Shown here piece after piece: positions 5,497 through 50,176 of a stretch of 64,000 nt of DNA. The stretch comes from a virus. Under the pieces are notes generated by a model, which worked only from the letters and a program-made list of their open reading frames with translations, was not told the origin of the DNA and did no database searches. Location of the stretch: positions 24,297 through 88,296 of the IMG/VR virus record IMGVR_UViG_3300037245_003526, one strand, 5' to 3'. Positions within the stretch are counted from its first letter, which is position 1, and the number at the start of each line of letters is the position of its first letter. A program made the position numbers and the translations under genes.

Positions 5497-6351
5497 TTAA
5501 AAATAGTTATTAGAATTAAAACCACCATTTATACCCTTATACATCATTGCTACAGCTTCACTTGTGTGAATACTTTCTTCATGTACACATTTGACAATCC
5601 AGTCAGTTACTTTATCATTACTATTTAAACCTTGCGCTATTGCTCTAATAGCGTCCTCAACAAACATCGGATTTTTCCATGCATGTTTAGCAATTGTCAT
5701 TTCATCTTCTCTTTTGATAATAGGATATGGAAGAACCTTAACTGCTTTTTCTACTATATCAACAATATCCTCCAACCATAATGGACCTTTTAGATGATGA
5801 GGATGTCCCTCTACAAGAACATTAGCAAATGATCTTTGTGCATGAGGTGCAGCTCCACGACCTTTTCGAGCAAGGTACATTACTAACTCTTTACTACATG
5901 GACAATATGACGCATATTGAACTCTAACTCCTTGAAAGAATTTAAATTCATCTTCATCCAAAAGTTGTCCTTCAAACTTACAATCATAAAATAATGGAAA
6001 CTCATTATCAGATTTTATTGACTGTTTTATAATTGGTAACTTAAAGTCAAATCTCATATAAACATGATCAGTTTCTAAATTATCCCTAAGATCTTTTAAA
6101 ATATTAAGGATTAATGATTGCTTCAATGGTTCATCAAGATACCCACGTAAAGTTCGTATGCATCTTGACATTGAAATACCCTTTATGTTAGATTCTAAAC
6201 TTGCCCTCATAGAAACATTGGCAACCATATTTCTATAGTTGCCGTTTCTAGATTGTAACATAAACGGAACTTCAACATTTTCAACTCCAACCTGTTGAAT
6301 TGGAATTTTTACTTCAGGTTCGCTTTGTTGAATATCCGGTAAATCGCTCAT
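5497..6351 (-). CDS. Hypothetical protein.
   Basis: 284-aa ORF immediately downstream of RNAP beta. Confidence 0.4.
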   Translation of the reverse strand: MSDLPDIQQSEPEVKIPIQQVGVENVEVPFMLQSRNGNYRNMVANVSMRASLESNIKGISMSRCIRTLRGYLDEPLKQSLILNILKDLRDNLETDHVYMRFDFKLPIIKQSIKSDNEFPLFYDCKFEGQLLDEDEFKFFQGVRVQYASYCPCSKELVMYLARKGRGAAPHAQRSFANVLVEGHPHHLKGPLWLEDIVDIVEKAVKVLPYPIIKREDEMTIAKHAWKNPMFVEDAIRAIAQGLNSNDKVTDWIVKCVHEESIHTSEAVAMMYKGINGGFNSNNYF

Positions 6352-6492: not shown

Positions 6493-9400
6493 CTACCTTT
6501 CTACACCTATGGCTTTTAAATAAGCATTTAATAATCTTACAGACTCTGGAATTATAGATTGTTCTTTATCATCTTTCATAAAATCAGAATCTATCTTTGT
6601 CCTTATAAACTCATTTTTCAAATCAATACAATCACTCTTAGTAGTTAGAAACTCAAACAAATTTGCAGAAGCATCATGACCTGTTAAACACGCCATTTCC
6701 ATTTCTCCGCTTCTTTGACCTCCACCATGTTTTCTTCCTGCTAAAGGTTGTAATGTTTTTCTTGCATATGATCCTATTCCTCTAGCTGATAATCTTGTTT
6801 CAGAAATATGAACCATTTTGAAAAAGTACATATAACCTACAGCTATTCTATTCTTAATAATTTCTTTTGCTATAGGTTCGTACACTTCTCTTTTGAATTC
6901 AGTATTTGTATATTCAAGTGCTTTTCTGGTAACATCTAAGTCTACTGATTCAAATGGTGGTTGAATTAAAACAATACTATCAATAAACTTCTCAGTAATT
7001 TCTCCTGGAAGCTGTTGATTAAATTGTTCATAATACCATCCACCATCGGTTCTGTCAATAATTTTGATATAATTAAGTAAGTATAATTTTAACATTTTTT
7101 GTATTTGAGCATCATCTAATCCTTCAACTCTTTTAATTTTTCTATCAAGAATTAATTTCATATATTTTCTTAAATCAGAAAGTGACATAGCTAAATGTAA
7201 TTCATAAAGCTGTCCAATATTCATTCTGCTGATGATACCCAGAGGGTTTATACATATATCAACATGACGACCATCAGGTAATTGTGGCATTTTTTCATGA
7301 GGAACAATTGTTGAAATTACTCCCTTATTTCCATGTCTGTTTCCAACTTTATCACCAACCTGAATAGGTCTGAAAAATATTGCGAATAACTCTACGAAAA
7401 TTCCATTAATTTTTTCATTCTTAATTTTGAATTTTCCTATGTTTGCATGTGTGTCTAATTCATTATCTTTGATAAACTTTATTGCTTCTTTTTTAGGAAG
7501 GTGTTCTGATATTACCCTTCGTAAATCAGTCTCTTTCTCTTGCTGATCTGTAATTTTTTTCTCTACCCATTCTTTATATTCAGGAACATCTTCATTCCAT
7601 TCATTAGCAAATATATTACACTCTGTGATATACAAATTTTTTCTTGCATATAAATTCTTTTCCTGTTTGAAAATATCAAGAAACTCTTGCTGATTAGAAG
7701 GTATAGTTTTTATAATGGCATATGTATCATCCTTTTTAATTCTATCCTCTCTAGTAGGTAGTGGTTTAAAAACATTTTTATCCAAACTTAATAAGAGTTT
7801 ATGAGGTGGAATTGTAAATGACAAATCCATATAATGTACTGATGTAAGTACATTATCATCTCTTAGTCTTTCAGATATTACTATACCATCCTCATAGTTA
7901 TAACCGTACCACTCCATTACAGCAGTAAGTAAATTTTTTCCAATATTAATCTTATTGTCAGTACAATAATTACTCTCTGCTATTATCTGACCTTTACTTA
8001 CTTTGTCACCAAATTTGACATAAATTTTTAAGACATCAAGATTTGAAATATATATCTTTCTATAAGATATATTAAAAATATCTACTTCTTCATTATCATA
8101 AGCAAGAATTAGATATTTTTCATCTAAATAAACTACTTCACCATCCTCCTTTGCAACTTTAACAAACTGTGTTTTATCAGTATATAATCCTTCGCAACCA
8201 GATTGAATCATTGGTACATCAAAATTTTGTAACATGATTGCTTGTCTCATTTGTGATGATGCCATTTGAAGTCTGGTTTGATCATCGTGCTCTAAAAAAG
8301 GAACCATTGAAACTGGAATTGAAATTGGTTGCTTTTCAAGATATTCATTTGTAAAACGTAAATTTTCATCTAACGGAACATTTGGAATTAAGTTTTGTAA
8401 CACTCCACAATTTTCCCTATCAGGAGTATCCACCGGACAAATTCTACCAAACATTGTATCATTAATATCTCGTAAATGCTCAGGTACATTTTGTTTATTA
8501 AAACCTCCAGGACCAACTAAACTCGTTCTACTTAACTTTGTGAGTTCTTCTATTGGATTTATGGAAAAGTCAAATTGAATTATATCTGAAACATTACATT
8601 CTGAAAGAATTTGTGTAGAATTTACATTAAACTTTGGTTGTCTGGCAGTTCTATTAGTAATACAGAAATCGAAGATTATTTTACTTACCTTTGATAATAT
8701 CATATATTCAAAACAACGTATTCTCTTGTTCTGCATGTCTGTATCATCAAAACCTCCAGATTCCATTGTATAGATTAATTCATCAAGAACAGAATCAGTA
8801 TGAAAAAACCTTGAAGTCATAACATCACACTTCATAATAAGGTCTAATGCAAAAACTAAATCTTCACCCTTACCTTTGGCATTATATTTTGAATAATGTC
8901 TTCCTAACTCTTTAATAATATCATCTTGTGAAGTTCTCTTATTTTCATCATAAAAATCTAAAATATCTTTTAAGAAAGCACCATACATTCCATCATTACT
9001 AAAACTATCAGAATTCAAAGAAGATAGTTTAAATTTATTATTCATTTCCTCTACACCAAAATAAGCAAACATTACTAAATGTAAAGGAACCTTTCTTCCT
9101 AAAATACTAATATAAGTATATGGTGAATCTTTTCTATCTTCAAAAACCATTATTTGAGTAACGTTGGTTCTAAGTTTTATACTCTTTCCTCTTGTAACAA
9201 CTGGAATATCAAAAAACTGAAACTGAGGAATTTTTTTCCTGCCATTTATAATTATATAATTATTATCAATAAGTTTTGGAATTTGTATTGATAAATTTAT
9301 TAAAGACGTCCCTTTCTGAAGTCTAATTGATAATGTTTTTTTCAATGTTCTGCTTATATCACCTGTAGAAAATCTTGGTTCCTTAAATTCACATTCCACA

Positions 9401-9552
9401 ACTTCAAAACCAATATCAGCCACAGGTGCTATAATCACTTTAATATCTTCTAATAAAGAACTATATTCATTAGCTCTTATATCAAAAATATTCTTCTCTG
9501 CAAGTTTATAAACTGGATTAGCTATATTCAAAAGTACTCCTCCTTTCAACAA
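6493..9552 (-). CDS. Multisubunit RNA polymerase beta-subunit homolog (set 1).
   Basis: It carries GDKVGNRHGNKGVIS (the beta C-terminal catalytic-region signature) and MASSQMRQA (an NMQRQA-like motif). 1019 aa. Confidence 0.8.
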   Translation of the reverse strand: MLKGGVLLNIANPVYKLAEKNIFDIRANEYSSLLEDIKVIIAPVADIGFEVVECEFKEPRFSTGDISRTLKKTLSIRLQKGTSLINLSIQIPKLIDNNYIIINGRKKIPQFQFFDIPVVTRGKSIKLRTNVTQIMVFEDRKDSPYTYISILGRKVPLHLVMFAYFGVEEMNNKFKLSSLNSDSFSNDGMYGAFLKDILDFYDENKRTSQDDIIKELGRHYSKYNAKGKGEDLVFALDLIMKCDVMTSRFFHTDSVLDELIYTMESGGFDDTDMQNKRIRCFEYMILSKVSKIIFDFCITNRTARQPKFNVNSTQILSECNVSDIIQFDFSINPIEELTKLSRTSLVGPGGFNKQNVPEHLRDINDTMFGRICPVDTPDRENCGVLQNLIPNVPLDENLRFTNEYLEKQPISIPVSMVPFLEHDDQTRLQMASSQMRQAIMLQNFDVPMIQSGCEGLYTDKTQFVKVAKEDGEVVYLDEKYLILAYDNEEVDIFNISYRKIYISNLDVLKIYVKFGDKVSKGQIIAESNYCTDNKINIGKNLLTAVMEWYGYNYEDGIVISERLRDDNVLTSVHYMDLSFTIPPHKLLLSLDKNVFKPLPTREDRIKKDDTYAIIKTIPSNQQEFLDIFKQEKNLYARKNLYITECNIFANEWNEDVPEYKEWVEKKITDQQEKETDLRRVISEHLPKKEAIKFIKDNELDTHANIGKFKIKNEKINGIFVELFAIFFRPIQVGDKVGNRHGNKGVISTIVPHEKMPQLPDGRHVDICINPLGIISRMNIGQLYELHLAMSLSDLRKYMKLILDRKIKRVEGLDDAQIQKMLKLYLLNYIKIIDRTDGGWYYEQFNQQLPGEITEKFIDSIVLIQPPFESVDLDVTRKALEYTNTEFKREVYEPIAKEIIKNRIAVGYMYFFKMVHISETRLSARGIGSYARKTLQPLAGRKHGGGQRSGEMEMACLTGHDASANLFEFLTTKSDCIDLKNEFIRTKIDSDFMKDDKEQSIIPESVRLLNAYLKAIGVER

Positions 9553-9932
9553 TCATGACCCCTTGAGTGTATAAGAAAATTCATCTCACTGTATTCTCTT
9601 GCTATTTTTCTCCTAATATTTTGCTCTATATTTTTTCTAACGCGTTCATAAAAATACTTTTCAGCATCGTATCCAAAAATAATATCACCTTCTTTAGTAA
9701 CCATATGAATTTTAGCAATAAGAATTTTTACATTAATTTTTTGCATAAGTGTTTGTATCAACGTAGCTGAAATATCAGGAGATAGAGCAGCAGAAAAAGA
9801 TATTATTAAAACTTCTGGTTCTAAAGATAATACCGCAATCTCAGAAACTATAGATTGATATATACCATTTTCTATAATCTGTATTTTAGTAGAACAATGT
9901 TCCTTAATTATTTTTTTAATTTTTTCAATCAT
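9546..9932 (-). CDS. Small hypothetical protein between RNAP beta-prime and beta.
   Basis: The ORF-track start at 10112 overlaps beta-prime by 170 nt. An internal Met (MIEKIKK) preceded by AGGGGAGATTTT at about 9932 is a more plausible start. Confidence 0.35.
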   Translation of the reverse strand: MIEKIKKIIKEHCSTKIQIIENGIYQSIVSEIAVLSLEPEVLIISFSAALSPDISATLIQTLMQKINVKILIAKIHMVTKEGDIIFGYDAEKYFYERVRKNIEQNIRRKIAREYSEMNFLIHSRGHDC

Positions 9933-9942
9933 AAAATCTCCC

Positions 9943-12672
9943 CTAAACTCGCTCACCACATAATATTTTATCCATAATCCCTTTATAAAGTCCTGGTTGT
10001 AATATCCCTTTAATAATATGTTTTTTAGGATTTGAGAAAGCAAGACCCATAAGCCAGCTTTCATATGAGGGGACGGTTTGAACGGAATGAAACTGAGGAA
10101 CCAGTTTTTCACGATTTTTAAGAAGACGCCATTTATAAATTCCTACCCACATTAATTGAGAAACTATACACTCAAAGTGAACATGGTTAATAGTACGAGA
10201 AGTATTATAAGTTGTATAAAGATCATCAACTAATTTTGGTATGTCAACATTTTTACCAAACTTATGTAGTAATTTAGATGCCATTGATAAATCACTAACA
10301 ATATCCTGTTGTTTCAACTCATCTACTTCTTCACCTTCTCTTATATTTGCAACTCCACTAGTATGAAATGTTCTTAAAACTAATTGAGTATTACATTCAC
10401 CCATTGATTGAGCAGCAATAATTCCAACAAACTTTGTTTTAAGATCCTCATGTAATTTTCCATAACAAGTATGACATAATTTTTCATTTTTACAATATAT
10501 GGGACTTCTAACATTTATTGTTTTTCCAATAAAGTCCATATAATTATCTTTTGTAATAAGTACTAACTCATCATCTTCAGACATCCATTTATTTATAAGT
10601 TGTTTAGCTTTCTTATCATCACGTATAAATACTTTTAATAAATCCGTTGTACCACAATCTTCAATATCATAACTCAGTAATAAATTTGCTGCTGTAAAAA
10701 TCAATTTTCTTGATAAATAACCAGAAGCTCCAGTATTAAGAGCAACATCAAGAAGACCTTTTCTACTACCATAAGTGGAATTAAAGAAACCTTTTGGGGT
10801 CAAACCACTTATAAAACTATTTTTAATTGGTTCAGGAATTATTTGACCATTAAAATTTGATACAAAACCCCTTGATAAAACTATCTGTTTAGCTTGATCC
10901 CAACTACCTCTAGCTCCAGATTCAATCATATATGAGTATTTAAATCCACTTCTTAAAATATCCATAAGGTCTTTATTCTCAGTTGAGATTTTGAAAACTT
11001 GTTCTCTTATGGACCCAGACGAGTAAATATCATCTCTGACAGTATCAATACCTTCGATATGACAATCATCGAGAGATAGAGTTGGACCGAATAGGGTTGA
11101 GTATTTGAATCCTACGAACTTGATTTTGTCCAACACCTCTGCTGTAGTAGCTAAATTATACTTTCGATTAATATCATTTAATATTCTAATCAATCCTTTT
11201 GAATTAGTAGGTTCAATAATAAGTGGATAATCTTCTGGAAAACATTCATTGAATATTTTAATATCCTCTTGAATAGTTTCCCCTTTATATTCAACTTTTC
11301 TACTTAGTTTTGGAAATTTATTATTAGTAAGTGCATATATACCAAGAACCATATCCTGACTAGGTGTTGTAGTTAAACTGCCATTAGATGGGTTCTTTAA
11401 ATTCTGAGTAATTAACATTTTTTCAATTGCTTCTTGTTTAGTTTCTTCGCTAATAGGAACATATATGGCCATCTGATCTCCATCAAAATCAGCATTAAAT
11501 GGTGGGCAAGATAATGGATGAATTCTAATAACATTATCTAAAGATATTTTAATATAGTATGCTAACATACTAAGTTTATGGAGAGATGGTTGTCTGTTTA
11601 ATATACAAACTTCTCCACTACATATTTCTTCACATAAGGAAAATAAAACTGATGAGTTTGAAGCTATACACTCATCAATAAAATCAATAGATTGATTTAG
11701 CAATTTAAACTGTCCTGTATCTATTAGTTTCTTTGCTACTTCAATCTTAAAGATTTCTAAAAATATAATATAAGGAATTGAACATTGATCAATGTTTAAT
11801 GTTGGATCTGGTACTATGACTGCTCTACCAGAAAAATCTATTCTTTTACCAAGTATGTTTCCCCTGATAAGACCTTCTTTTTTAGAAAGTTTTTCAAGAA
11901 TATAAGCATATAATTCATTTACATCTTTTTGAAGTTGTCTGAAATGATTATAGAATAAGGTATTATCTCTTCTGACATCAATCAGCGATTCTTCAATAAC
12001 TTCTTTCTTTGTAAGAACCTGCATGTAATACTTATTAATCTTATCTGCATATTGTTCACTTCTTAAGGATCCTTTAGTAGCAGGTCTTAAATCAGCAGGT
12101 AATACAATAATACGATCTATTATTAATTCATCAATATTATCATATACAATCTGCCATGGTGAATCTTCCTCCTCGTCAATTGCTTTCTCTGCTAACTTAA
12201 ATACAAGCTCATGTATAGCTTCTAACCCATACCATGCTTCTCGTCCTTCTTCAATTTCATCTGAATTAGTAACTATTAGATCATTATTATCCTCATGTTC
12301 ATCATCCAAAACAAGGACAGATTTTTCATCTCTCATTAGCTTTTTTAAAGCTTCTTTTAATGAGGTACCAGCAAGATCAACTACCAAATCATAAAATACT
12401 GGATTGACCACAGGCACCGGAAGAACTATTTTTGCAAACCTTCTTCTTCGTTCATCACTATTAACAACATCAACACTACATATATTACATGTACCTCCAG
12501 AACCAGATGTTCCATAATATGTACCGCATTGACATGTGTAGTTTTTTAGTGGACCAAATATTTGTTCGCTAAATAGTCCTTCCGGATGAAATTTTTTCTT
12601 ATCCATTACCTTAGTTGTAGTTATTTCAGGAAGGTTTTCTGTAAATTCTGTAAACTTTAGTAGACTCGGCAT
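9943..12672 (-). CDS. Multisubunit RNA polymerase beta-prime-subunit homolog (set 1).
   Basis: It has an N-terminal zinc finger (CQCGTYYG...CNICS), the catalytic NADFDGD, and a trigger-loop region IIAAQSMGECNTQLVLRTFHTSG. 909 aa, ending soon after the trigger loop. Confidence 0.85.
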   Translation of the reverse strand: MPSLLKFTEFTENLPEITTTKVMDKKKFHPEGLFSEQIFGPLKNYTCQCGTYYGTSGSGGTCNICSVDVVNSDERRRRFAKIVLPVPVVNPVFYDLVVDLAGTSLKEALKKLMRDEKSVLVLDDEHEDNNDLIVTNSDEIEEGREAWYGLEAIHELVFKLAEKAIDEEEDSPWQIVYDNIDELIIDRIIVLPADLRPATKGSLRSEQYADKINKYYMQVLTKKEVIEESLIDVRRDNTLFYNHFRQLQKDVNELYAYILEKLSKKEGLIRGNILGKRIDFSGRAVIVPDPTLNIDQCSIPYIIFLEIFKIEVAKKLIDTGQFKLLNQSIDFIDECIASNSSVLFSLCEEICSGEVCILNRQPSLHKLSMLAYYIKISLDNVIRIHPLSCPPFNADFDGDQMAIYVPISEETKQEAIEKMLITQNLKNPSNGSLTTTPSQDMVLGIYALTNNKFPKLSRKVEYKGETIQEDIKIFNECFPEDYPLIIEPTNSKGLIRILNDINRKYNLATTAEVLDKIKFVGFKYSTLFGPTLSLDDCHIEGIDTVRDDIYSSGSIREQVFKISTENKDLMDILRSGFKYSYMIESGARGSWDQAKQIVLSRGFVSNFNGQIIPEPIKNSFISGLTPKGFFNSTYGSRKGLLDVALNTGASGYLSRKLIFTAANLLLSYDIEDCGTTDLLKVFIRDDKKAKQLINKWMSEDDELVLITKDNYMDFIGKTINVRSPIYCKNEKLCHTCYGKLHEDLKTKFVGIIAAQSMGECNTQLVLRTFHTSGVANIREGEEVDELKQQDIVSDLSMASKLLHKFGKNVDIPKLVDDLYTTYNTSRTINHVHFECIVSQLMWVGIYKWRLLKNREKLVPQFHSVQTVPSYESWLMGLAFSNPKKHIIKGILQPGLYKGIMDKILCGERV

Positions 12673-12984
12673 CTATCCCCCTTTATTAAAATTCTTATTC
12701 ATAAACTTTGAAAGTCCTCCGATTAAAAGAAGTAAATGTTTCTTAACCTCTTTAGAAACTACTTCAGGAAGATTTACCAATAGCTCTTCAACAATTTGCT
12801 TAATTTCACTTTTCTCTAGTTCAACTTTTTGTGCTTTGACCTCCTTTTTTATTTGTTCCATCATATTTGGTCTTTTGACAAATACATTCCCTAATTCCCC
12901 TTCTAGTTTTTCTTCTACAATTTCTTTTAAAAGATTTTTTATCAAATCTTTTGTTTCCTCACTTTCCATGTTATCTCCCTTCAT
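12673..12984 (-). CDS. Small K/E-rich helical protein that ends in Gly-Gly.
   Basis: 103 aa with C-terminus ...NFNKGG. It lies immediately downstream of the E1/E2-like cluster. Confidence 0.4.
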   Translation of the reverse strand: MKGDNMESEETKDLIKNLLKEIVEEKLEGELGNVFVKRPNMMEQIKKEVKAQKVELEKSEIKQIVEELLVNLPEVVSKEVKKHLLLLIGGLSKFMNKNFNKGG

Positions 12985-13442
12985 TAAAAATAATTAATTG
13001 GAAGTCTTCCTGCTTCTCCTTCATATCTGATATATTTTTCATCAAAATCCGGCCAAAAATGTGGCGAGTTTAAATTCCAAATCCTTAACATAAACCTTAT
13101 TGCCCATAATTGCTGTTTTAATAATTTCTCTTTCCCACTAATTACCATTCCTTTTAAATCATCTGAAATACAAAAATCCGCCTTTTTACAAAAATATTTA
13201 AAGCTTCCGCTAACTACTTTTCCTTTTGGAATATATGAGTTTGGATGTGCAACATCATATAATGTTATTCCTTCAAATTCATTATCAAATTTATTATTCA
13301 CAAGAATATCATATTTACTTATAATATAATTTTGATGAACCCACTTAATATCATATGTATTTTTTTTCCCTGTATGAAAATCATCAAATCTAATAAGTGC
13401 AGGTTTAATTGTTTCTCTCATTGTTTGTAATATTTCACTCAT
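12984..13442 (-). CDS. Hypothetical protein. It is a weak E2/UBC-like candidate.
   Basis: The ATG at 13440-13442 overlaps the TAA of the upstream E1-like gene as TAATG, a classic coupled-translation arrangement. The track's longer start at 13478 is probably wrong. It has a mid-protein HPN motif followed by a Cys (AHPNSYIPKGKVVSGSFKYFC) at roughly the position seen in UBC folds. Confidence 0.3.
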   Translation of the reverse strand: MSEILQTMRETIKPALIRFDDFHTGKKNTYDIKWVHQNYIISKYDILVNNKFDNEFEGITLYDVAHPNSYIPKGKVVSGSFKYFCKKADFCISDDLKGMVISGKEKLLKQQLWAIRFMLRIWNLNSPHFWPDFDEKYIRYEGEAGRLPINYF

Positions 13443-14329
13443 TATGCACCTCCTGTCTCTGGAATTAATTCTATACATATTCTTTCTTCATTTATTCCTA
13501 TTGTGACTAAATATTCTCTATAAGTAAATACATTATTAGCCATTTCTGATAGAATTCTCATAACATCTTCTGGTGATTGTAATTCATGCTTAGAAATAAT
13601 ATATGAACATAAAGAATCTTCTTTTCTACCAACATAAATAGGTATAGAAGAATCTTTATTTGCTTTTAATATCGCAGGTAAATTTTCAAAATGTCCTGTT
13701 AATTTTTCTTGCCCCTCAAAAGAAATATCATAAATTAAATCCGGTTGATTTTTATATTTTTTAACAGCTATCTGAAATTTATCATCATCATCATCACCCT
13801 TCAAATCTATACTATATTTAATTTCTCTTTCAATAAGTTCCTTAATTTTTCCTGTTCTAACATGTTCATATAACTTAAATGCTGCTCTTCTTATTTCATC
13901 CTTTGAAAAATCACTAGTATAAGTACCCCGTTTTGAAGTACCATATGTTACATATTTATTACAATCAATAACTAACTTATTGAATGAAATATAAAATCTA
14001 ATATCAATATAACCACTCCTATCACAGCTTTCATCTCTACAATCAAAAACCATATCATATGGAATTCTTTTACATGTAGGTTCATCAAATTTTTTATATA
14101 TAGGGTTTACCAATAAATCATCAGTCCTATCTTTTATCATATCACAAAGCGCATATACTTTTTTACGTTTTAAATCTCTAACTCTATAAATAGAGTTTTC
14201 TAAATTTGATTTTTCTACAAAATCATTATCAATAAATGAAAGTTTTTGTAATCCCGGTAAATGAGACATAAACTCAGCGAAGAATCCACCTAACGAACCA
14301 ACACCTATTATTAATACACTTTTAGTCAT
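13442..14329 (-). CDS. ThiF/MoeB/E1-like adenylation-domain protein (E1-like A). Its nucleotide-binding motif is degenerate.
   Basis: VLIIGVGSLGG (GxGxxG), then IDNDFVEKSNLENS where canonical E1s have SNLNRQ, then DMVFDCRDESCDR (DxxDN-like). A GGGAGTG ribosome-binding site precedes it. Confidence 0.6.
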   Translation of the reverse strand: MTKSVLIIGVGSLGGFFAEFMSHLPGLQKLSFIDNDFVEKSNLENSIYRVRDLKRKKVYALCDMIKDRTDDLLVNPIYKKFDEPTCKRIPYDMVFDCRDESCDRSGYIDIRFYISFNKLVIDCNKYVTYGTSKRGTYTSDFSKDEIRRAAFKLYEHVRTGKIKELIEREIKYSIDLKGDDDDDKFQIAVKKYKNQPDLIYDISFEGQEKLTGHFENLPAILKANKDSSIPIYVGRKEDSLCSYIISKHELQSPEDVMRILSEMANNVFTYREYLVTIGINEERICIELIPETGGA

Positions 14330-14411
14330 TCACAATTCACTCCCTTCATATTTTATGATCCCCACTTATAAATAAGCAGGGATCATAAATACTTTTAAAT
14401 TTTAGCAACTA

Positions 14412-14915
14412 TTAACCAACTCTAAATTCATCTATTTCGCGATCGGTTGGGTTTGGTCGATAATAAGATTTCCAAATAAACTGTTTTAAAGCTATTTCCA
14501 TTGGATGTAAATATGGTAAATCATATTGTACATATTTTTTAGAACCATTTGTAATAACCTTAAAATCAATATTCTTGAATTCTCTTAATTTATCTACAAA
14601 ATCACGTTCTTCCTTAATAGTCTTTACTTTTTTTCTTCTTAAATCAAAATAATCATATTCAGTATAATCCTTAATTTTTTTGATTTCCAGGCTTGTGCAT
14701 CGTTTACCTAAAGCATTTCTCGCTCTTTTATATGCTCTTTTTCTTCCTTCTTTCTTATTGAACTGATCATATATAGAGCATATAGAAATACCTCGTGCAA
14801 CTAATAGATTAGATTCTTTTTCTAAAAATAAACACACCGTAACCGAGTTACCAACACATGGAGACTTTTCGTAGTAATAAACATCACGAATATCTGTCAT
14901 GGCTTTGTCAATCAT
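14412..14915 (-). CDS. Hypothetical basic protein inside the Ubl-like operon.
   Basis: 167 aa with a strong GGAAGGAGA ribosome-binding site. No clear motif. It contains Cys and a basic patch. Confidence 0.4.
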   Translation of the reverse strand: MIDKAMTDIRDVYYYEKSPCVGNSVTVCLFLEKESNLLVARGISICSIYDQFNKKEGRKRAYKRARNALGKRCTSLEIKKIKDYTEYDYFDLRRKKVKTIKEERDFVDKLREFKNIDFKVITNGSKKYVQYDLPYLHPMEIALKQFIWKSYYRPNPTDREIDEFRVG

Positions 14916-14977
14916 TTTCTCCTTCCTTTCAGTTGGGGTGAACTGTTATAGTCCACCCCATTTTATAAGTTTAATTT

Positions 14978-15466
14978 CTACAGTCCTACATCAATACCCT
15001 TACGTCCAGATGGTTTCATGAATTCAACATTGTCAGCGTCCTTTAAAATATAAGACGAAGCAACTTCTTTTCCATTAACCAACATCTTTGGAGTAGAAGG
15101 AACATTAAGAACTTCACGAAGAAACTCAGCAACAGCACCAACTTTTTTACCAACAACAGGATATTCACCACTTGAAGCTCCGCAAGAAACCTGTATAGTG
15201 CTTGAGATTCTTCCACTAGAAGAACCTGGTTTCGTCATTACACTCCTTACATTACACTCAACAGCAGTAACTTCACCTGAATTATCAACTTCTCTTGACA
15301 TACTTGCCGTATCGCGTTTTCTTGACTTCTTGGCAGATAACGCTTCAATAATTACTTCTTTCCTCTTTTTAGACATTCCAGGAACATTATGTTTTTTACA
15401 TAAATCTCTCAGATGAGAAACTGTATGTTTTTCCAATGCTTCCACTGTCCATTTAGCTTTACCCAT
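14978..15466 (-). CDS. SAP/Rho-N-like N-terminal domain plus a C-terminal ThiS/MoaD-like beta-grasp. This is the candidate ubiquitin-like protein.
   Basis: The N-terminus TVEALEKHTVSHLRDLCKKHNVPGMSKKRKEVIIEAL fits a SAP bihelical pattern. The C-terminus AVAEFLREVL...KMLVNGKEV...ILKDADNVEFMKPSGRKGIDVGL parallels ThiS/MoaD (TVxELL...VNxxxV...LKDGDEVxxxPPVSGG), but it ends SGRKGIDVGL rather than GG. Confidence 0.45.
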   Translation of the reverse strand: MGKAKWTVEALEKHTVSHLRDLCKKHNVPGMSKKRKEVIIEALSAKKSRKRDTASMSREVDNSGEVTAVECNVRSVMTKPGSSSGRISSTIQVSCGASSGEYPVVGKKVGAVAEFLREVLNVPSTPKMLVNGKEVASSYILKDADNVEFMKPSGRKGIDVGL

Positions 15467-15495
15467 TTTTCTTTTTCCTTTCTTTAAATGTTTTA

Positions 15496-16176
15496 TTAAA
15501 TTACTACTCGTTGTGCGGGTCTTACATTCATCATTTCCATATCAAAGTAAACTTCTGAATTCTTACCCGACCGTACATTACCTACTCCAACTAAGTCATA
15601 AAAATACCAGCACATTATAAGAGCCACAGTTATATTAGCAAATAACACTTGTGGCTCAGATACTGATAGTTCTTCACAACTCATTTGATCCGGAGATCTA
15701 TCTTCCGGGTTGTCTATCTCGGGATGATAGTCAGTAAGAGATGGTGTTATTTTTTTACCATTCTCTCGTATATAAATTTGCACATTTCCGTCAACAAATT
15801 CATTTCCTCCTGAGATTAAAACAACTTTTTCTAATGTAGTACAATAATCAGAAACAATTTTTCTAGTCCTATGATTATCTACACATAAAAATATGACATC
15901 ATCCTCTTCTATAATTCTATTGACATTCCTTGAGGTAACATAGTCTGTACATGTTAAAACTTCTAAATTATCAAATATTGCAATAAGATCTCTTCTCTTA
16001 ATTCTTGCCTTATTACCAAAGTTTGAAAAGGATTGTCTTTCTTTATTCCTTTCCTTGTAACTCTTTCCATCGATCAAAGTAATATTAAATTCACCATCAA
16101 TATAATTAACAAATCTGAAAAGGTTATCGCATAATGCAGAACCAACTCCTCCTAAACCTATAACTTTGATGTTCAT
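15496..16176 (-). CDS. ThiF/MoeB/E1-like adenylating enzyme (E1-like B).
   Basis: VIGLGGVGS (GxGxxG), then LIDGKSYKERNKERQ (a D..E.N..RQ ATP-binding motif), then DDVIFLCVDNHRTRK (DxxDN..R), then VVLISGGNE. Confidence 0.7.
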   Translation of the reverse strand: MNIKVIGLGGVGSALCDNLFRFVNYIDGEFNITLIDGKSYKERNKERQSFSNFGNKARIKRRDLIAIFDNLEVLTCTDYVTSRNVNRIIEEDDVIFLCVDNHRTRKIVSDYCTTLEKVVLISGGNEFVDGNVQIYIRENGKKITPSLTDYHPEIDNPEDRSPDQMSCEELSVSEPQVLFANITVALIMCWYFYDLVGVGNVRSGKNSEVYFDMEMMNVRPAQRVVI

Positions 16177-16191
16177 ATTTACTCCTTTCTA

Positions 16192-17214
16192 CTAAAATAT
16201 ACTAGATTCATCAGGTTCATCAGGTTCTTCTTTAAAACCTAATTTCTCTAATTGGTCTTCATCAAGTTCCTCAAAAATTTCCTGCATAAGAAGCTCTGTT
16301 TTATGCGCTTTATAAGGACACTGTTCACATGGATTCCATTCCTCATTTTTAATTCTGTAACCAGAATCATTTACACTTTCAGGTTTCAGTCTGAATGGAT
16401 TAAAATCATGTACTTTAAGTTTAGTTTCCTCAGGCAAGACTTTTTTAGCTTCTTCTTCATACTTGATTTTATCAACCATCTTTAACCATTTTTTTGGAAA
16501 TTTAATATTTCCGTCTATCACCCCCTTTACTTTATACCCAAGAGATGTCTTAGATGGTCTAACATCCTCTACTTGTTCATATTTTCCCTCCATAAGCGAC
16601 CATTTTTTATAAACTTCTCCAGGAATTTCAAACTCTTCAAGTTTGATTCCATCAATATAATTAGTTGGATCGCAAGTAAATCTTGTTCCATTTGCAACAA
16701 TAGAACAAGAGATTGATATTAAATCATTATTCATATTACCAACTGTAATATGAAGTCCATCAAAATCAACTTCATCTGTATCATCTGTTCCAGAATGAAA
16801 TGCTGACATTCCTGCGTGACTATGTATAGTACCTATCCTTTGATATCCTTTAATCTGTTCATTAAGATAAGCTACAGATCCACTACTAGTTTTCTGTAGA
16901 GGAACCTGAACTTTAAATTTACCAGATTTTTTATTAAAATGTATTACAGTGTTTGCCTCATTACTATTATAATCCTGATATACTTTCTTGAAAAAAGTAA
17001 TAATCTTTCCAAAATCTTCAGCTGAAATTCGTTTGATATTCATTTTTGCTTGAGGTATTATATCATCAGAAAGAAATGAAATCTTATTAATAGGTACTAT
17101 ACTTTCCATGAAACCTACTTTTTTCTTTAAGTAAACTTTATCCTTACAAATAATATATAAAACATCATCTGAAGGCATCTCATTTACACCATCATTTATA
17201 TGTACTTTAAACAT
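16192..17214 (-). CDS. JAB/JAMM (MPN+) family metalloprotease with a C-terminal extension.
   Basis: IHSHAGMSAFHSGTDD matches HxHx7Sx2D, with an upstream Glu. 340 aa, GGGAGGTG ribosome-binding site. Confidence 0.7.
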   Translation of the reverse strand: MFKVHINDGVNEMPSDDVLYIICKDKVYLKKKVGFMESIVPINKISFLSDDIIPQAKMNIKRISAEDFGKIITFFKKVYQDYNSNEANTVIHFNKKSGKFKVQVPLQKTSSGSVAYLNEQIKGYQRIGTIHSHAGMSAFHSGTDDTDEVDFDGLHITVGNMNNDLISISCSIVANGTRFTCDPTNYIDGIKLEEFEIPGEVYKKWSLMEGKYEQVEDVRPSKTSLGYKVKGVIDGNIKFPKKWLKMVDKIKYEEEAKKVLPEETKLKVHDFNPFRLKPESVNDSGYRIKNEEWNPCEQCPYKAHKTELLMQEIFEELDEDQLEKLGFKEEPDEPDESSIF

Positions 17215-28249: not shown

Positions 28250-29053
28250 CTATTCACATTTCTTCTGTTTTAAACCACTCCATCCATCAGATACACCAAG
28301 AGGAAATATCCTATCATTTACTGAGACACATAAATTACCATCCCTACATAAAATATTAGTTTCAGCTTTAATATTAGTTTCACATTCCATTGGTACTATA
28401 TCACCCCAATCATCAATGGCACCAATAGCAACTTCAGCTCCATTATAAAGTATATAAGCTTTCTTTTCCCTGCATATTATATCAATCATAGATGAGGAAG
28501 CTGATTTCTGTGCAATAGTATCCAACTTTTTTGCAAGAATATTTATACCCTTTTTGACTTGAGCAATACGTCTCTCAGTAGCATATTCTTTTACAGTTTT
28601 TTTAGCTGTATCAACAACAATCTCTTTTGCTGCATTTTTAGCTACTTTTTCTGAATATGCTTTGAAGTTTGGTATAGCTATAGCAGCCAATATAGCTATA
28701 ATAGAAATTACTATCATCAGCTCTATTAAAGTAAATCCACCTCCCCAACTACCACCTCCCTCACTTGGAGGACTTTCCAACTCACATATCTGTTTTTCAA
28801 ATTTTTCGATGTCTTTCTCACACTTTTTAATCTTTATGGTTACTCTAACTTCTTGTTCCATAGCATCCATTGTAGCTTTAACTTCATTTAATTTTTTAAC
28901 TTTATCTTTTAACTTCTTAACTTTATCCTCAACAGTCTCGGATATAAATTCACCTTGGGTAATTAAATTGACAATTCTTTTACCAACAAATTTCCATAAA
29001 CCCCAAGCAACAAATCCAATGAAAATTAACCCTATTATTCCCTGAGCAAACAT
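28250..29053 (-). CDS. Membrane-anchored coiled-coil protein with an internal type IV prepilin-like motif and a Cys-containing C-terminal domain.
   Basis: N-terminal TM helix, then a K/E-rich coiled coil, then GGGSWGGGFTLIELMIVISIIAILAAIAIPNF. That last stretch is a canonical class III signal with G|FTLIE, about 105 aa in from the start. The C-terminus has multiple Cys, as in pilin D-regions. Confidence 0.5.
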   Translation of the reverse strand: MFAQGIIGLIFIGFVAWGLWKFVGKRIVNLITQGEFISETVEDKVKKLKDKVKKLNEVKATMDAMEQEVRVTIKIKKCEKDIEKFEKQICELESPPSEGGGSWGGGFTLIELMIVISIIAILAAIAIPNFKAYSEKVAKNAAKEIVVDTAKKTVKEYATERRIAQVKKGINILAKKLDTIAQKSASSSMIDIICREKKAYILYNGAEVAIGAIDDWGDIVPMECETNIKAETNILCRDGNLCVSVNDRIFPLGVSDGWSGLKQKKCE

Positions 29054-29142: not shown

Positions 29143-30441
29143 CTATTTTTTTACTGCTCCCTTTGGTATATCCAGATTAAGACCAAGCTGCTTCAAAGCT
29201 ATAAGAGAAAGAACATCCTGCATAGCCAAAGCATCTCCATCTACTCCAGATTTTCCACTACCACCCATCATAACTGTTGGAACAGGTCTTATTGAAAAAG
29301 CATTTGCCCATACTTTCTGTACTCTTTCATAAGTTTTAAGCTTTTGTTCAAGAGCACCATCTGCTCTAAGGACAAGTTTCTTTCTTTCTGATTCACCCTG
29401 ACCCAATAGAATCAGCTCAGCTTTCTTAAATGCAGCAGCTTCCTTATCCAGCTTATTAACTGTCTTTCTTTGCTCACCACCAATTACAGCAACTTGTTTA
29501 TCCCTTTCAGCATTAAGTTCCTGTACCTCTTTATTCTTTTGAGCTTCAACTACAGCACGAACCTTCTTCTGCTCTTCCTCATATTTTGCTTTAGCAACCT
29601 TTGCTTTTCCCTGTGCCTCAATAGTAAGCTTCTCCTGCTCCGCTTTTTTGGCTTCAGTTATAGCAGTTGCAACAGCCATTAAGGATGCCTGTTGAGTAGC
29701 GATCTGTTCTTTAACCTTAGGTGCATATTCAAAAGTTTTAATCTCAAAGTTCTTGAGAGTAATACCTGTCCCCTCTAAAGGATTAGAAAGATATAGAGGT
29801 TGAGAGTTAGGTTTTCCATCTACCGTTTTAATAATTTTGAAAGTTTTATGAACCTTCTCACCAGATATAGGATCGATTACATCTCTTTCCTCATCCATTG
29901 TCTCATATAGACCATTCTCAACCTGGTCTCGTGCCCATGTATTATAATCAATTCTCTTAGAAGCATAAGACTCCTGAGCAGTCATCATATTTGCTGTCAT
30001 CCTCAGAGCATTACGAATAGTTGGAAGAATCATTTTATTTTGTACTTCTTCTGGAGATGCGTAACCATCTTCTGTTATAAGCTCTATAGCATCCTTTGCT
30101 CCAACAGGTAAAAGTACACGAGCAGTTCCTGAGATTTTACATAAGGAACCATCCACAAATCGTACCTCTATTGATTGATCATAACTTCCACCTTCTTCTA
30201 CATCATGTGTAAAGAAGAATGTAAATGCCTTTGGCCAGGTGTCAATGTCACCCCATAATTGAAGCCAAAGTCCTGGTTGCATTTTAGCAGACATTTTTCC
30301 TGTTACGGCTGCCTGCTTTATCTGATATGTACCTTTTCCTACAGTGCTAACAATTTTAGAAGCACATATCAAGGCTATAATAATACATATAACTGATATT
30401 ACTCCAATAACTACACCCCTGTTAATCTCTTGTTTTGCCAT
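29143..30441 (-). CDS. SPFH/band-7 (flotillin/HflK-like) membrane protein.
   Basis: N-terminal TM helix, an SPFH-like core (QPGLWLQLWGDIDTWP...SIEVRFVDG), and an EA-rich coiled coil (KKAEQEKLTIEAQGKAKVAKAKYEEEQKK). Confidence 0.5.
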   Translation of the reverse strand: MAKQEINRGVVIGVISVICIIIALICASKIVSTVGKGTYQIKQAAVTGKMSAKMQPGLWLQLWGDIDTWPKAFTFFFTHDVEEGGSYDQSIEVRFVDGSLCKISGTARVLLPVGAKDAIELITEDGYASPEEVQNKMILPTIRNALRMTANMMTAQESYASKRIDYNTWARDQVENGLYETMDEERDVIDPISGEKVHKTFKIIKTVDGKPNSQPLYLSNPLEGTGITLKNFEIKTFEYAPKVKEQIATQQASLMAVATAITEAKKAEQEKLTIEAQGKAKVAKAKYEEEQKKVRAVVEAQKNKEVQELNAERDKQVAVIGGEQRKTVNKLDKEAAAFKKAELILLGQGESERKKLVLRADGALEQKLKTYERVQKVWANAFSIRPVPTVMMGGSGKSGVDGDALAMQDVLSLIALKQLGLNLDIPKGAVKK

Positions 30442-34772: not shown

Positions 34773-34887
34773 AGGGTCAGCCAGGATTTGAACCTGGATG
34801 GCTAGCCGGAAGGTTTATTTCTCTGGTTACTATTATCCAGCTCCGTTTGCCTACTAATAGCGTCTTCTCCAATTTCGCCACTGACCC
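34773..34887 (-). tRNA. tRNA-like element, about 115 nt. It has a canonical acceptor stem, a class-II-like D-arm and a T-arm, but the internal anticodon/variable region is too long.
   Basis: GGGTCAG/CTGACCC gives a 7-bp acceptor stem. The D-arm is GCG-AAATTGGAGAAGA-CGC, the same 3-bp D-stem type as tRNA-Leu. The T-arm is CCAGG-TTCAAAT-CCTGG, followed by a discriminator T. About 62 nt lie between the D-arm and T-arm, against the expected 22-37, and no clean 5-bp/7-nt anticodon stem-loop is found. Confidence 0.4.
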
Positions 34888-37088: not shown

Positions 37089-37510
37089 AATATTCCTTAC
37101 TAAACCATATAAGATCTTGTGCTTTTTTTATAATTACTTTGATTCCATATTTACGAACCAAATAACCAGCAATAAAACATCCAACTCCATAAATAATTAC
37201 AAATTCCATTTTTAAAAACCCCCTTTCTTTTATTTATAAAGAACTTTATTATAAAGTTTCTTACCTTTATCAAAAAGTTTCTTACCTTCTTCAAAAATTA
37301 CAGATAATTTTCCTTCTTTATAAAGATAAAATACTATAATCCCTGAAAGAATTCCTGCAAAATACCCCATAATAAAATCTCCTTTCTTTTTTTTAGTCCA
37401 ATAATTTTACAATAACTTTCATAAGACCAATAATTTTACCAGTTTTAATCAAGTAGAATAATCCAATAATTACTAATATTGTGATTATTGTTGACATAAT
37501 AATCTCCTTT

Positions 37511-37750: not shown

Positions 37751-39049
37751 CTAGCCATCTATTCTGACTACATATCCAGTTTTATTAACATTATCTGCTG
37801 TACCACCTTTTTGAATAACATAAATGATTTTCTTGGGTAAATATTTTTTTGGCATACCATTTATATTATCAGTATATCCATCTGTAAAACATAATACAAC
37901 ATCAGGATTAAGTTTTTTACATCTCTCAAGAGCAGGTGCTAATACTGTACCTCCTCGTCCTTTTACCTCAAAATCAATATCTTTAACTTTTTTAACTTGA
38001 TATTCTTTCTGAATTACTGTATCTATTTCCATAACTGTTAACTTACAAAATCTATCACCTTCAATAACATTTCTGACACCTGATAAACCTTCTTTAATAT
38101 CATCAGGTGACATACTACCAGATACATCAATTACTACAATAATATCAAAAGTTAAATCTCGAGCACGACCAGGAAATGGACTTATAGCGGGAAGATTACT
38201 ATTTTCACCAATCATAAATGTATAAGTCCTTTTTCTACTTACTTTAGCAAATGCTCTCTTGAATTTACTATATCTTGATGCCTTTACTAATTTTCGAATG
38301 ATCATAAAATATGGAGCTTTTGGTGGTCTAAGAGCTTTATCAATAAGTTCCCTGATATATGCTGGAAGATCACCTCTTCCTCTTTCAAAATTCTTTAAAG
38401 AATCCTTTATAAGATCTTGAATATAATTATCTACTGATCTTGATAAAGCACTAACATCACCAGACTGTTTAGTTATGTTCTTCCATTCAGAATGGTCATC
38501 CATAGATTTACCTACACTTTTTAAACCTTCCGCGCATTCACCTCCCCCATTTTTCTTATTTTTTTCATCTTGTTTTAATAACTCTTTAAAATAGAATTCA
38601 GTCGGTTTATTATCCGGTAACTTATACATCTTTGGATGAAGAACTGGCCAATCCTTTCCATCAATTTTAAGAGTTTTTGGTAAATCTATTAAATGGTTTA
38701 CAGAACAATCAGCAGCTATATTCCAAATAATAGCTTTTCGCATTTTTTGCATATCACTTACTTCATTTGAAAGTATTCGTAATAGTCTTGAAATATGTTT
38801 ATTCAAAACATGCATACCTTCATGTTCAATTATTTGCTTTAAAACACTATCCTCTGTGCCCATTAAAAGTTTAGGGTGAAAAACCAAAGTTATAGTTCCA
38901 TTGATATTTGGTTTAACTCCCATTATAGAAGGGATTGATTCACTTTCTTCCCTTCTAATTCTACTAAAAAGATAACCCCAGTAACTACTCTTCAAAGTCA
39001 TCTTTGCTACCAGATTTTTCAACCTTTCATCAGGAGTTATATTTTTCAT
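37751..39049 (-). CDS. vWA-domain protein with an N-terminal HExxH metallopeptidase-like motif.
   Basis: HEGMHVLNKH (HExxH) and the MIDAS motif DIIVVIDVSGSMSPDD (DxSxS). Confidence 0.6.
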   Translation of the reverse strand: MKNITPDERLKNLVAKMTLKSSYWGYLFSRIRREESESIPSIMGVKPNINGTITLVFHPKLLMGTEDSVLKQIIEHEGMHVLNKHISRLLRILSNEVSDMQKMRKAIIWNIAADCSVNHLIDLPKTLKIDGKDWPVLHPKMYKLPDNKPTEFYFKELLKQDEKNKKNGGGECAEGLKSVGKSMDDHSEWKNITKQSGDVSALSRSVDNYIQDLIKDSLKNFERGRGDLPAYIRELIDKALRPPKAPYFMIIRKLVKASRYSKFKRAFAKVSRKRTYTFMIGENSNLPAISPFPGRARDLTFDIIVVIDVSGSMSPDDIKEGLSGVRNVIEGDRFCKLTVMEIDTVIQKEYQVKKVKDIDFEVKGRGGTVLAPALERCKKLNPDVVLCFTDGYTDNINGMPKKYLPKKIIYVIQKGGTADNVNKTGYVVRIDG

Positions 39050-39054
39050 ACATT

Positions 39055-43291: not shown

Positions 43292-43350
43292 ATCCTCCTT
43301 TAAAAATAAATCTAAACGAAAAACGACAAAAAGGGAAACCTCGTACCTAT

Positions 43351-43428
43351 CCGACTTAGGTCTGTTGGATATGTACTAGTTTCTCAATATATGAGATAAC
43401 TAGCACATATCCAACAGACCTAAGTCGG
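43351..43428. repeat. 78-bp near-perfect palindrome (long inverted repeat).
   Basis: CCGACTTAGGTCTGTTGGATATGTACTAGTT-TCTCA-ATATA-TGAGA-TAACTAGCACATATCCAACAGACCTAAGTCGG. There is about 1 mismatch in roughly 36 bp of arms, and the inner part is itself palindromic. Confidence 0.7.
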
Positions 43429-43736
43429 TTAAAATAATGTGGAGGTAATCTATCGTAAGAAAAAGATATGGATAAAGGAATCAAATTGTCCTTTATGGGT
43501 ATCTTTTTATTAAATAATTAAACTTTTATACCATACTTTTTGATTTTGTCTTTGATTATAGATGGTAACTCAATTTGTAACGTTTTTGCTAATTCGACTT
43601 TTTGCTGAAGTGTGGCTCGTCTTATTGCAGCCAGCAGTTGTCGATTTAGCTTTTGAATCGCAATTTTTATAGCACTTTTCTCTGACATTTCACTCACATT
43701 CCCTTAACGAATCCAGCTTGATTATCATCAGTGCAT

Positions 43737-49143: not shown

Positions 49144-49149
49144 ATTCTA

Positions 49150-50174: not shown

Positions 50175-50176
50175 TT

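Follow-up and report, generated by a model that had tools for sequence, protein, structure and literature searches.

Two compact RNA polymerase gene sets in an uncultivated mReC phage and their likely relation to the non-virion and virion polymerases of phiKZ and AR9

The described systems closest to the DNA considered here are the virion (v) and non-virion (nv) RNA polymerases (RNAPs) of the phages phiKZ and AR9, and the RNAPs of the metagenomic phages grouped as the mReC clade. In phiKZ and AR9, the nvRNAP (phiKZ gp55, gp74, gp71/73, gp123 and gp68; AR9 g270, g154, g105, g089 and g226) is a bacterial-type enzyme with beta' and beta in four pieces, and the vRNAP (phiKZ gp180, gp80, gp176, gp178 and gp149) consists of at least five polypeptides; according to a 2020 review, no virion RNAP had been purified at that time. 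The mReC clade was defined as metagenomic Caudovirales that encode beta and beta' at full length, and inclusion called for homologues of both, each of at least 800 amino acids, the NADxDGD motif and a location on one viral contig (Weinheimer & Aylward, Nat Commun 2020; PMC7481178). Jumbo-phage RNAP orthologues have also been spoken of in medium-sized phages (Iyer et al., 2021). Here, we compare with these systems a 64,000-nucleotide stretch of viral DNA (positions 24,297 to 88,296 of IMG/VR virus record IMGVR_UViG_3300037245_003526; hereafter the window, in whose numbering all coordinates are given), in which a first-pass annotation had noticed one pair of RNAP genes at 6493-12672 and a second at 45055-52522. 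Both pairs are real. They constitute two complete bacterial-type catalytic cores, which we call set 1 and set 2, encoded about 32 kb apart in the same genome and inherited together across the clade.

Two complete catalytic cores in one phage genome

The set-1 locus is a tightly packed minus-strand string with the order orf103, beta', orf128, beta. Its components and those of set 2, with their flanking open reading frames (ORFs), are the following.

Set 1
12673-12984, minus strand: orf103, small, acidic and helical, directly upstream of set-1 beta'
9943-12672, minus strand: set-1 beta', 909 amino acids, unsplit, with Pfam Rpb1 domains 1-5
9546-9932, minus strand: orf128, 128 amino acids, between beta' and beta, with an ATG at 9932 after a GGGGAG site
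6493-9531, minus strand: set-1 beta, 1012 amino acids, unsplit; the ORF as listed begins at 9552; Pfam Rpb2 domains 3, 6 and 7

Set 2
52526-52945, minus strand: orf139, a small basic protein directly upstream of set-2 beta'
50177-52522, minus strand: main part of set-2 beta', 781 amino acids from the N-terminus through the trigger loop, with Pfam Rpb1 domains 1, 2, 3 and 5 and NADFDGD
49872-50174, minus strand: orf100, 100 amino acids, lysine-rich, inserted at the split site of set-2 beta'
49150-49866, minus strand: C-terminal module of set-2 beta', a separate gene, 238 amino acids from the ATG at 49866 (the listed ORF has 249 amino acids from 49899)
45055-49143, minus strand: set-2 beta, 1362 amino acids, unsplit, with Pfam Rpb2 domains 3 and 6 and an N-terminal extension of ~350 amino acids relative to set 1
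44451-45053, minus strand: orf200, a conserved ORF directly downstream of set-2 beta

The identification of beta and beta' homologues at 6493-12672 is borne out by their Pfam Rpb1 and Rpb2 domains (best Rpb2 domain match of beta, E 7.5e-50), and the hallmarks that the first-pass annotation had read there, GDKVGNRHGNKGVIS in beta and a zinc motif, NADFDGD and the trigger loop in beta', are all in place. Its description of the two genes as adjacent holds insofar as they share one locus, but the 128-amino-acid gene lies between them, and the order on the minus strand is beta' followed by beta. The most likely true start of set-1 beta is the TTG at 9531, since this codon stands 8 nt after AAGGAGG (9539-9545) and agrees with the N-termini of the relatives' proteins. 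Both set-1 subunits are single ORFs in the window and in all relatives examined. Two homologues of set-1 beta' (P0061 and P0097; 1056 and 1065 amino acids, respectively) carry an intein-splicing domain (PF14890) inside beta'.

Alignment with bacterial RpoB and RpoC, which had been proposed as a check for missing regions, was carried out for the set-1 family against the E. coli proteins, both pairwise and by profile. In beta', the landmark residues correspond as follows.

First zinc site: E. coli C70/72/85/88, window C47/49/62/65
Catalytic aspartates: E. coli D460/462/464, window D395/397/399 (NADFDGD at 393-399)
Second zinc site: E. coli C814/888/895/898, window C673/727/733/736
Trigger-loop histidine: E. 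coli H936, window H770

Lid, clamp helices and bridge helix are likewise retained in set-1 beta'. It is devoid of the rudder loop (E. coli 310-326) and of the last ~50 E. coli residues, and about 25 residues replace E. coli beta' 954-1226, a region comprising SI3 and most of the jaw. The first-pass annotation had described a compact beta' ending shortly after the trigger loop; compact it is, but a C-terminal module of ~120 residues is kept beyond that loop. The set-1 beta profile covers E. coli beta 439-578, 656-837 and 1049-1336, and the counterparts of E. coli K1065 and K1073 are K735 and K743. Its N-terminal lobes are about 180 residues shorter than those of the E. coli protein, E. coli beta 579-655 are reduced to 13 residues, and about 70 residues fewer make up the flap/SI2 region. 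Collectively, nothing needed for catalysis is missing: both double-psi beta-barrels, the Mg-binding DFDGD, the pair of zinc sites, bridge helix and trigger loop, and the regions known as fork and switch are all there. The compactness of set 1 results from absent lineage-specific insertions (SI1 and SI2 in beta; SI3, most of the jaw, the rudder and the C-terminal tail in beta') and not from an absent core. In the pairwise alignment, residues D516 and H526 of the rifampicin pocket are replaced by F329 and K339 in set-1 beta, and these replacements suggest that the set-1 enzyme might be insensitive to rifampicin.

A sequence search of the PDB found bacterial beta' chains as the nearest solved structures to set-1 beta' (best E 2.8e-94), E-values that exclude chance similarity. 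An AlphaFold2 model of set-1 beta' built on a 42-sequence alignment (pLDDT 77, pTM 0.70) had bacterial beta' chains as its best Foldseek matches as well, with E about 1e-42 and query-normalised TM scores of 0.72-0.77. No Pfam match to an alpha, omega or sigma subunit was found among the about 50 ORFs scanned in the 64-kb window, which represents ~1/4 of the genome.

The claim that each subunit appears as a single large ORF applies to set 1 and to set-2 beta, but set-2 beta' is split into proteins of 781 and 238 amino acids. The smaller of these, which probably starts at the ATG at 49866 as it does in relatives, is identified as the C-terminal module of beta' by its collinearity with unsplit relatives, its relation to set 1 and its phage protein family. 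It aligns with residues ~781-1002 of the unsplit beta' proteins (1005-1010 amino acids) of relatives at 45-50% identity; hhalign relates its family to that of the set-1 beta' C-terminus with a probability of 98.9%; and it matches phrog_2926, the family of the phiKZ virion head protein gp176 (E 3e-7), a match found for set 2 only. Stand-alone homologues of the module form at least 70 clusters of 225-244 amino acids. Searches of PDB sequences with the module, as single sequence and as profile, gave no match at E <= 1, and tblastn with the 249-amino-acid version gave none among cultured phages. The split is not an assembly error, since the identical break point recurs in several relatives (L005/L091, L009/L096, L008/L094, L095, L041 and L046), with 0, 1 or 2 unrelated ORFs inserted; in others (L006/L092, L093, L097, L037 and L038), set-2 beta' is fused.

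The small genes at the two loci differ in their distribution among relatives. For orf128, the closest relative alone (L002, 32% identity) yielded a homologue; L001 and L003 are without it and have beta directly after beta'. This ORF gave no family match in Pfam and PHROG scans, and it is a lineage-specific insertion, not a conserved RNAP component. The same applies to orf100, likewise a lineage-specific insertion, for which no homologue was present in any locus fetched. In the mReC table, 0-2 genes stand between beta' and beta, varying by contig (PMC7481178), and together with the lineage-specific orf128 and orf100 this makes the RNAP gene junctions look like hot spots for the insertion of small genes. 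By comparison, orf139 occupies the same position in all set-2 loci fetched, and its family comprises 103 cluster representatives in a library of 1.84 billion proteins, nearly all of 120-160 amino acids. Homologues of orf200 follow immediately after beta in L005, L006, L008, L009, L092, L093 and L097, and those of orf103 end just before beta' in L002, L011, L013, L020 and L030. We regard orf139 as a candidate accessory subunit, orf200 as a candidate accessory factor and orf103 as a possible one. A known RNAP accessory fold was considered for orf139 and rejected (AlphaFold2 pLDDT 71, no PDB match at E <= 0.001); orf200 had no family matches, and orf103 no significant Pfam or PHROG match.

Set 1 and set 2 are 26-28% identical, about as distant from each other as each is from E. 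coli. Their paralogues align end to end (set-1 beta' 1-797 with set-2 beta' 1-781; set-1 beta 64-1019 with set-2 beta 397-1362), and each locus has its own beta' with NADFDGD and its own beta with GDK..RHG.KG. No further RNAP fragment lies elsewhere in the 64-kb window. With both sets carried by relatives as well, the proposal that this element encodes two distinct multisubunit RNAPs stands.

The source of the window is a large uncultivated tailed phage belonging to the mReC clade, and its sequence is itself new. Next to each other lie genes for a beta' of 909 amino acids with NADFDGD and a beta of 1012 amino acids, and phage-type genes are present in the window (baseplate, topoisomerase II, UvsX, SbcC); every gene is on the minus strand, and the G+C content is about 30%. 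A gene 100% identical to orf139 is carried by a contig of 244,552 bp, which points to a jumbo-sized phage genome as the source. Members of mReC are further marked by a gp23-type major capsid protein (PF07068) and a shared TerL family; the 64-kb window contains neither a capsid nor a terminase gene, and tblastn against cultured phages revealed no cultured member of this mReC subclade. The 'Moraphages' (PMC12619734) were considered as the clade and rejected, as that paper reports no RNAP genes.

Homologues of set-1 beta' form a very large metagenomic family of uniform length. The best 120 have 885-923 amino acids (apart from the 2 with inteins), are 56-80% identical to the window protein, with 80% for the closest, and stem from contigs of up to 304 kb. 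Synteny around the set-1 pair is kept in relatives, with ThiF-like genes upstream, beta downstream, and FolE2. Two homologues (P0107 and P0195) were deposited as proteins of archaeal metagenome-assembled genomes (Candidatus Thorarchaeota and Thermoplasmata); these are probably mis-binned phage contigs from sediment metagenomes.

Both RNAP sets occur together on IMG/VR contigs of 149, 207 and 255 kb. The relatives L005/L091, L007/L093, L009/L096 and L011+L097 are contigs of the mReC dataset, listed there as 'Metagenomic phage' with identical metagenome identifier and length; for them the dataset gives a beta of ~1011-1019 and a beta' of ~899-904 amino acids, and a second pair of ~1362-1367 and 1002-1009 amino acids (PMC7481178). 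Proteins at 53-69% identity are encoded on the dataset's contigs Ga0180432_10000070, Ga0180432_10000164, Ga0180434_10000255 and Ga0180433_10000139. Membership of mReC also calls for RNAPs that fall with the clade and not with cellular or NCLDV homologues; in the crude neighbour-joining trees, which differ in method from the published ones (PMC7481178), 98% support sets E. coli and S. aureus apart from both window sets. Two pairs each are recorded in it for Ga0180432_10000070 (149,482 bp), Ga0180431_10000006 (308,335 bp) and SMTZ23_10000005 (277,139 bp), a beta of ~1000-1019 with a beta' of ~899-902 amino acids and a beta of ~1362-1367 with a beta' of ~1002-1009 amino acids (PMC7481178). Both pair types, and with them the arrangement, have consequently been on record since 2020. 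The main text of that study, which treats the RNAP genes as phylogenetic markers, makes no mention of two polymerases per genome, of virion and non-virion roles or of a split set-2 beta' (PMC7481178), and we found no later paper describing two polymerases per mReC genome or a functional division between them.

Probable counterparts of the non-virion and virion polymerases

We read set 1 and set 2, with fair confidence, as compact mReC-phage RNAPs of which the former would be the counterpart of the non-virion and the latter the counterpart of the virion enzyme, the two together allowing an infection independent of host RNAP. Because the AR9 record labels its v and nv subunits, it could be searched directly; the PHROG families were anchored with phiKZ proteins as follows.

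PHROG 2987: phiKZ gp55, nv beta' N
PHROG 3015: phiKZ gp74, nv beta' C
PHROG 3295: phiKZ gp71/73, nv beta
PHROG 2986: phiKZ gp180, v beta' N
PHROG 2962: phiKZ gp80, v beta' C
PHROG 3148: phiKZ gp178, v beta
PHROG 3233: phiKZ gp149, v beta C
PHROG 2926: phiKZ gp176, virion head protein

Against these families, the window proteins gave the following scores.

Set-1 beta' N part: nv 122 bits, v 88 bits
Set-1 beta' C part: nv 131 bits, v 75 bits
Set-1 beta: nv 119 bits, v 73 bits
Set-2 beta' N part: nv 87 bits, v 161 bits
Set-2 beta' C part: nv 119 bits, v 93 bits
Set-2 beta: nv 143 bits, v 181 bits

This largely reciprocal pattern is repeated in blastp comparisons with AR9. Set-1 beta' matches the nv subunit g270 with 99.8 bits and the v subunit g145 with 41 bits; set-2 beta' matches g145 with 130 bits and g270 with 67 bits. 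Likewise for beta, the set-1 protein finds nv g105, and v g189 is found with the N-terminal region of the set-2 protein. Trees were computed by neighbour-joining with Kimura distances and 200 bootstraps, a crude procedure for such divergence. A first beta' tree contained a bacterial beta' (L080) and three ORFs taken in error from L027, L029 and L031, and these were left out of the tree of the beta' C part. In the latter, to which AR9 was added, set 1 groups with the AR9 and phiKZ nvRNAPs at 90%.

Twelve window ORFs have AR9 homologues at E <= 1e-5, among them an AAA ATPase and zincin/vWA pair, an SF2 helicase, UvsX, subunits of gyrase/topoisomerase II, NrdE and g242. The pair lies at 37751-40266 (minus strand), where the AAA ATPase is followed by the zincin-like/vWA (DUF2201) protein in the pairing and order of AR9 g028/g029. 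Nucleus-forming jumbo phages (Chimalliviridae) are marked by the chimallin shell protein and PhuZ tubulin; in blastp of the 64-kb window against the first 250 kb of phiKZ, with gp54 and gp39 included, only the four RNAP ORFs of the window match. The small ORFs gave nothing significant against phiKZ and AR9.

Baseplate-like and amidase genes are followed directly downstream by set 2, and tblastn with set-2 beta matches phiKZ-like genes annotated 'structural head protein'. From this location and this resemblance to head-associated proteins of phiKZ, we infer that set 2 would be made late, together with the structural genes, and packaged into the particle. It would then be injected with the DNA and transcribe the early genes, including set 1; set 1, made after infection, would transcribe middle and late genes. 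Such a phage would be independent of host RNAP, and promoter specificity would derive from phage factors, not from a sigma factor. Matches to sigma-70-like promoters occur in the window at chance frequency. After reading all intergenic regions, we considered the recurring sequence AAACTTAT as a promoter and rejected it (20 matches versus 10.4 expected, mostly inside genes).

Several observations weigh against this assignment. The C half of set-2 beta', the sole exception to the reciprocity, scores slightly higher with the nv than with the v family (119 versus 93 bits). The neighbour-joining tree of full-length beta' pairs set 1 with set 2 (98%) and joins the v and nv proteins of phiKZ on long branches; set 2 and both vRNAPs are grouped at only 21% in the tree of the beta' C part; and the beta tree is unresolved. 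For the fifth nvRNAP subunit, which confers promoter specificity, no homologue was found: no window ORF matches phiKZ gp68 in blast, and AR9 g226 is the best match of none, both being fast-diverging proteins compared here with 64 of about 245 kb. No promoter motif was established in the window. We consequently grade the support for set 1 as a counterpart of the nvRNAP as moderate and that for set 2 as a counterpart of the vRNAP as weaker; the parallel with the v and nv enzymes of jumbo phages that the first-pass annotation had drawn is plausible in the light of the reciprocal similarities, but the trees are mixed.

The full-length beta' tree, the low grouping of set 2 with the vRNAPs and the unresolved beta tree keep one alternative in particular alive, namely that the two sets were duplicated within mReC, independently of the phiKZ/AR9 duplication, any v/nv division being convergent. 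Such a history would agree with the published view of the mReC RNAPs as one clade (PMC7481178) and with the identities in trimmed columns, where the two sets stand slightly closer to one another (about 31%) than to the pieces of phiKZ or AR9. The reciprocal best-match pattern, however, cannot be produced by rate differences alone, and the tree of the beta' C part joins the nvRNAPs with set 1. Moreover, given the very long phiKZ branches, the mutual attraction of the phiKZ v and nv proteins is an expected artefact. We therefore judge a duplication inside mReC to be rather unlikely, although it deserves to be taken seriously.

A further alternative would have both polymerases act only inside the cell, on different temporal or promoter classes or with one as a backup, neither being packaged, and host RNAP reading the early genes. 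The sister placement of the sets in the full-length beta' tree speaks for it, being compatible with a clade-internal duplication unrelated to the v/nv split of phiKZ, and the window has strong Shine-Dalgarno sites and hairpins like intrinsic terminators, as found in ordinary host-dependent phages. Yet set 2 specifically resembles the virion families of gp180 and gp178 and has a gp176-like module, phiKZ members of which are annotated as structural head proteins; it adjoins baseplate-like genes, and sigma-70-like sites do not exceed chance level. In our estimate this scenario is unlikely, and somewhat more so than a duplication within mReC.

We give very little credence to the idea that set 1 is a recently captured fragment of host rpoC-rpoB, or that the contig is cellular. 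The structures closest to set-1 beta' in sequence and fold are indeed bacterial beta' chains, and in the phage collection tblastn ranks bacterial contaminants highest. However, the identity to any bacterial beta' is only about 27-29% and the gene order is the reverse of rpoBC, the protein belongs to a uniform family of ~900 amino acids found on viral contigs of 100-300 kb with phage synteny, and the window contains baseplate, topoisomerase II, UvsX and SbcC genes. Finally, the split set-2 beta' demonstrates that fragmentation occurs in this genome, but the notion that the two loci hold ORFs for complementary pieces of one RNAP, which the first-pass annotation had named as the outcome that would overturn its reading, is refuted by the end-to-end alignment of the paralogues and by a full beta' (NADFDGD, trigger loop) and a full beta (two catalytic lysines) at each locus, and has practically nothing left in its favor.

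Other features of the window

The remaining features of the window lie outside the RNAP genes themselves.

5497-6351, 942-1961 and 20947-21978, minus strand: a GTP cyclohydrolase I of the FolE2 type (E 2e-66) and two proteins of the radical-SAM kind
13442-19792, minus strand: gene cluster upstream of the set-1 RNAP, with two ThiF/E1-like proteins (13442-14329 and 15496-16176), a 162-amino-acid protein with weak Rho_N and ThiS-like matches (14978-15466), a weak JAB-peptidase match (16192-17214) and an 861-amino-acid protein without matches
28250-29053, minus strand: protein with a prepilin-type N-methylation motif
29143-30441, minus strand: SPFH/Band-7 protein adjoining the preceding one
34773-34887, minus strand: intergenic tRNA-like element of 115 nt
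37089-37510, minus strand: three tandem ORFs of about 35-50 amino acids each
43348-43431: 34-nt inverted repeat
43456-43512: second, 24-nt imperfect hairpin after the inverted repeat
62848-63891, minus strand: ORF of 347 amino acids related to the ribonucleotide reductase large subunit

The cluster at 13442-19792 looks like a ubiquitin-like conjugation module; its ThiF genes and its large ORF are conserved in L001 and L002. FolE2 adjoins the RNAP genes in relatives too; the presence of FolE2 and the radical-SAM pair suggests a 7-deazaguanine-type nucleotide or DNA-modification pathway. In L001, the pair of SPFH/Band-7 and prepilin-motif genes follows the RNAP genes.

In the tRNA-like element, an acceptor stem of 7 bp (GGGTCAG/CTGACCC) and a canonical T arm are combined with greatly expanded anticodon and variable regions. 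It scored 30.5 bits with the Rfam tRNA model (gathering score 29) in a small-region search; ARAGORN and the whole-window Rfam scan at gathering threshold missed it, the latter finding nothing in the window. The inverted repeat is 94% complementary with a 16-nt spacer, lies in a non-coding gap of 445 nt and might serve as terminator, origin or protein-binding site. The three tandem ORFs have hydrophobic cores and their own AAGGAG sites and lie in an apparent intergenic gap of 422 nt. Within the barrel-domain profile of the ribonucleotide reductase large subunit, the ORF at 62848-63891 matches the C-terminal part only (positions 183-523); this gene may be split or interrupted, with its N-terminal part beyond the end of the window.

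Comparison with described polymerases

Taken by itself, the set-1 pair is ordinary for its clade, since full-length phage pairs of this kind were published in 2020 and metagenomes contain them by the hundreds. Its value lies in the context, namely two complete polymerases with a similarity pattern that mirrors the v and nv enzymes of phiKZ-like phages, with far fewer polypeptides and a much smaller divergence from bacterial RNAP. Tentatively, we raise the possibility that mReC phages hold slowly evolving, largely unsplit orthologues of the phiKZ/AR9 v and nv RNAPs, and that the two-polymerase strategy predates the fragmentation of the genes in cultured jumbo phages. Set-2 beta' would then stand between two states, being either fused or split exactly where phiKZ separates gp80 from gp176, and the clade would offer simple versions of the virion RNAP made of two or three polypeptides. 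Such orthology would argue against the multi-piece phage enzymes as the ancestral form and help to order events, with duplication first and gene splitting later. It would also provide better-behaved models for the assembly of, and promoter finding by, phage RNAPs that lack alpha and sigma, with orf139, orf200 and orf103 as candidates for the missing assembly or specificity factors. This would be of interest to specialists in phage transcription and would not overturn current views.

With bacterial RNAP (RpoB/RpoC), set 1 has the catalytic architecture in common; it differs in an identity of only about 27-29%, in the order beta' then beta, and in the absence of SI1, SI2, SI3, the jaw, the rudder loop and the C-terminal tail. 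Unsplit beta' proteins of 1090-1127 amino acids are also known from cultured phages, namely Yersinia YerA41, vB_Yru_GN1, the Rhizobium Kleczkowskaviridae (RHph_TM30), Vibrio Va2 and Cobetia Carin-5. In vB_Yru_GN1, a beta of 925 amino acids follows directly after beta', as the order is in the window. The RNAPs of these cultured phages are, however, only 24-28% identical to those of the window and branch outside both sets in the neighbour-joining trees.

Like set 1, the nvRNAP of phiKZ and AR9 is bacterial-type, with no alpha or omega homologue detected, in the case of set 1 within the 64-kb window. The set-1 subunits, in contrast to the four pieces of the nvRNAP, are single polypeptides, and they are far less diverged from bacteria: set-1 beta' scores about 300 bits against E. 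coli beta', compared with 56-100 bits against the phiKZ/AR9 pieces. Set 2, for its part, is most similar to the gp180 and gp178 families of the vRNAP. In both it and the phiKZ-type vRNAP, the C-terminal-most module of beta' is a small protein of its own, of the gp176/SPN3US gp244-like kind, and both have a beta with a long N-terminal extension. Whereas the vRNAP is made of at least five polypeptides, set 2 comprises three, and in several relatives its beta' is one protein of 1005 amino acids.

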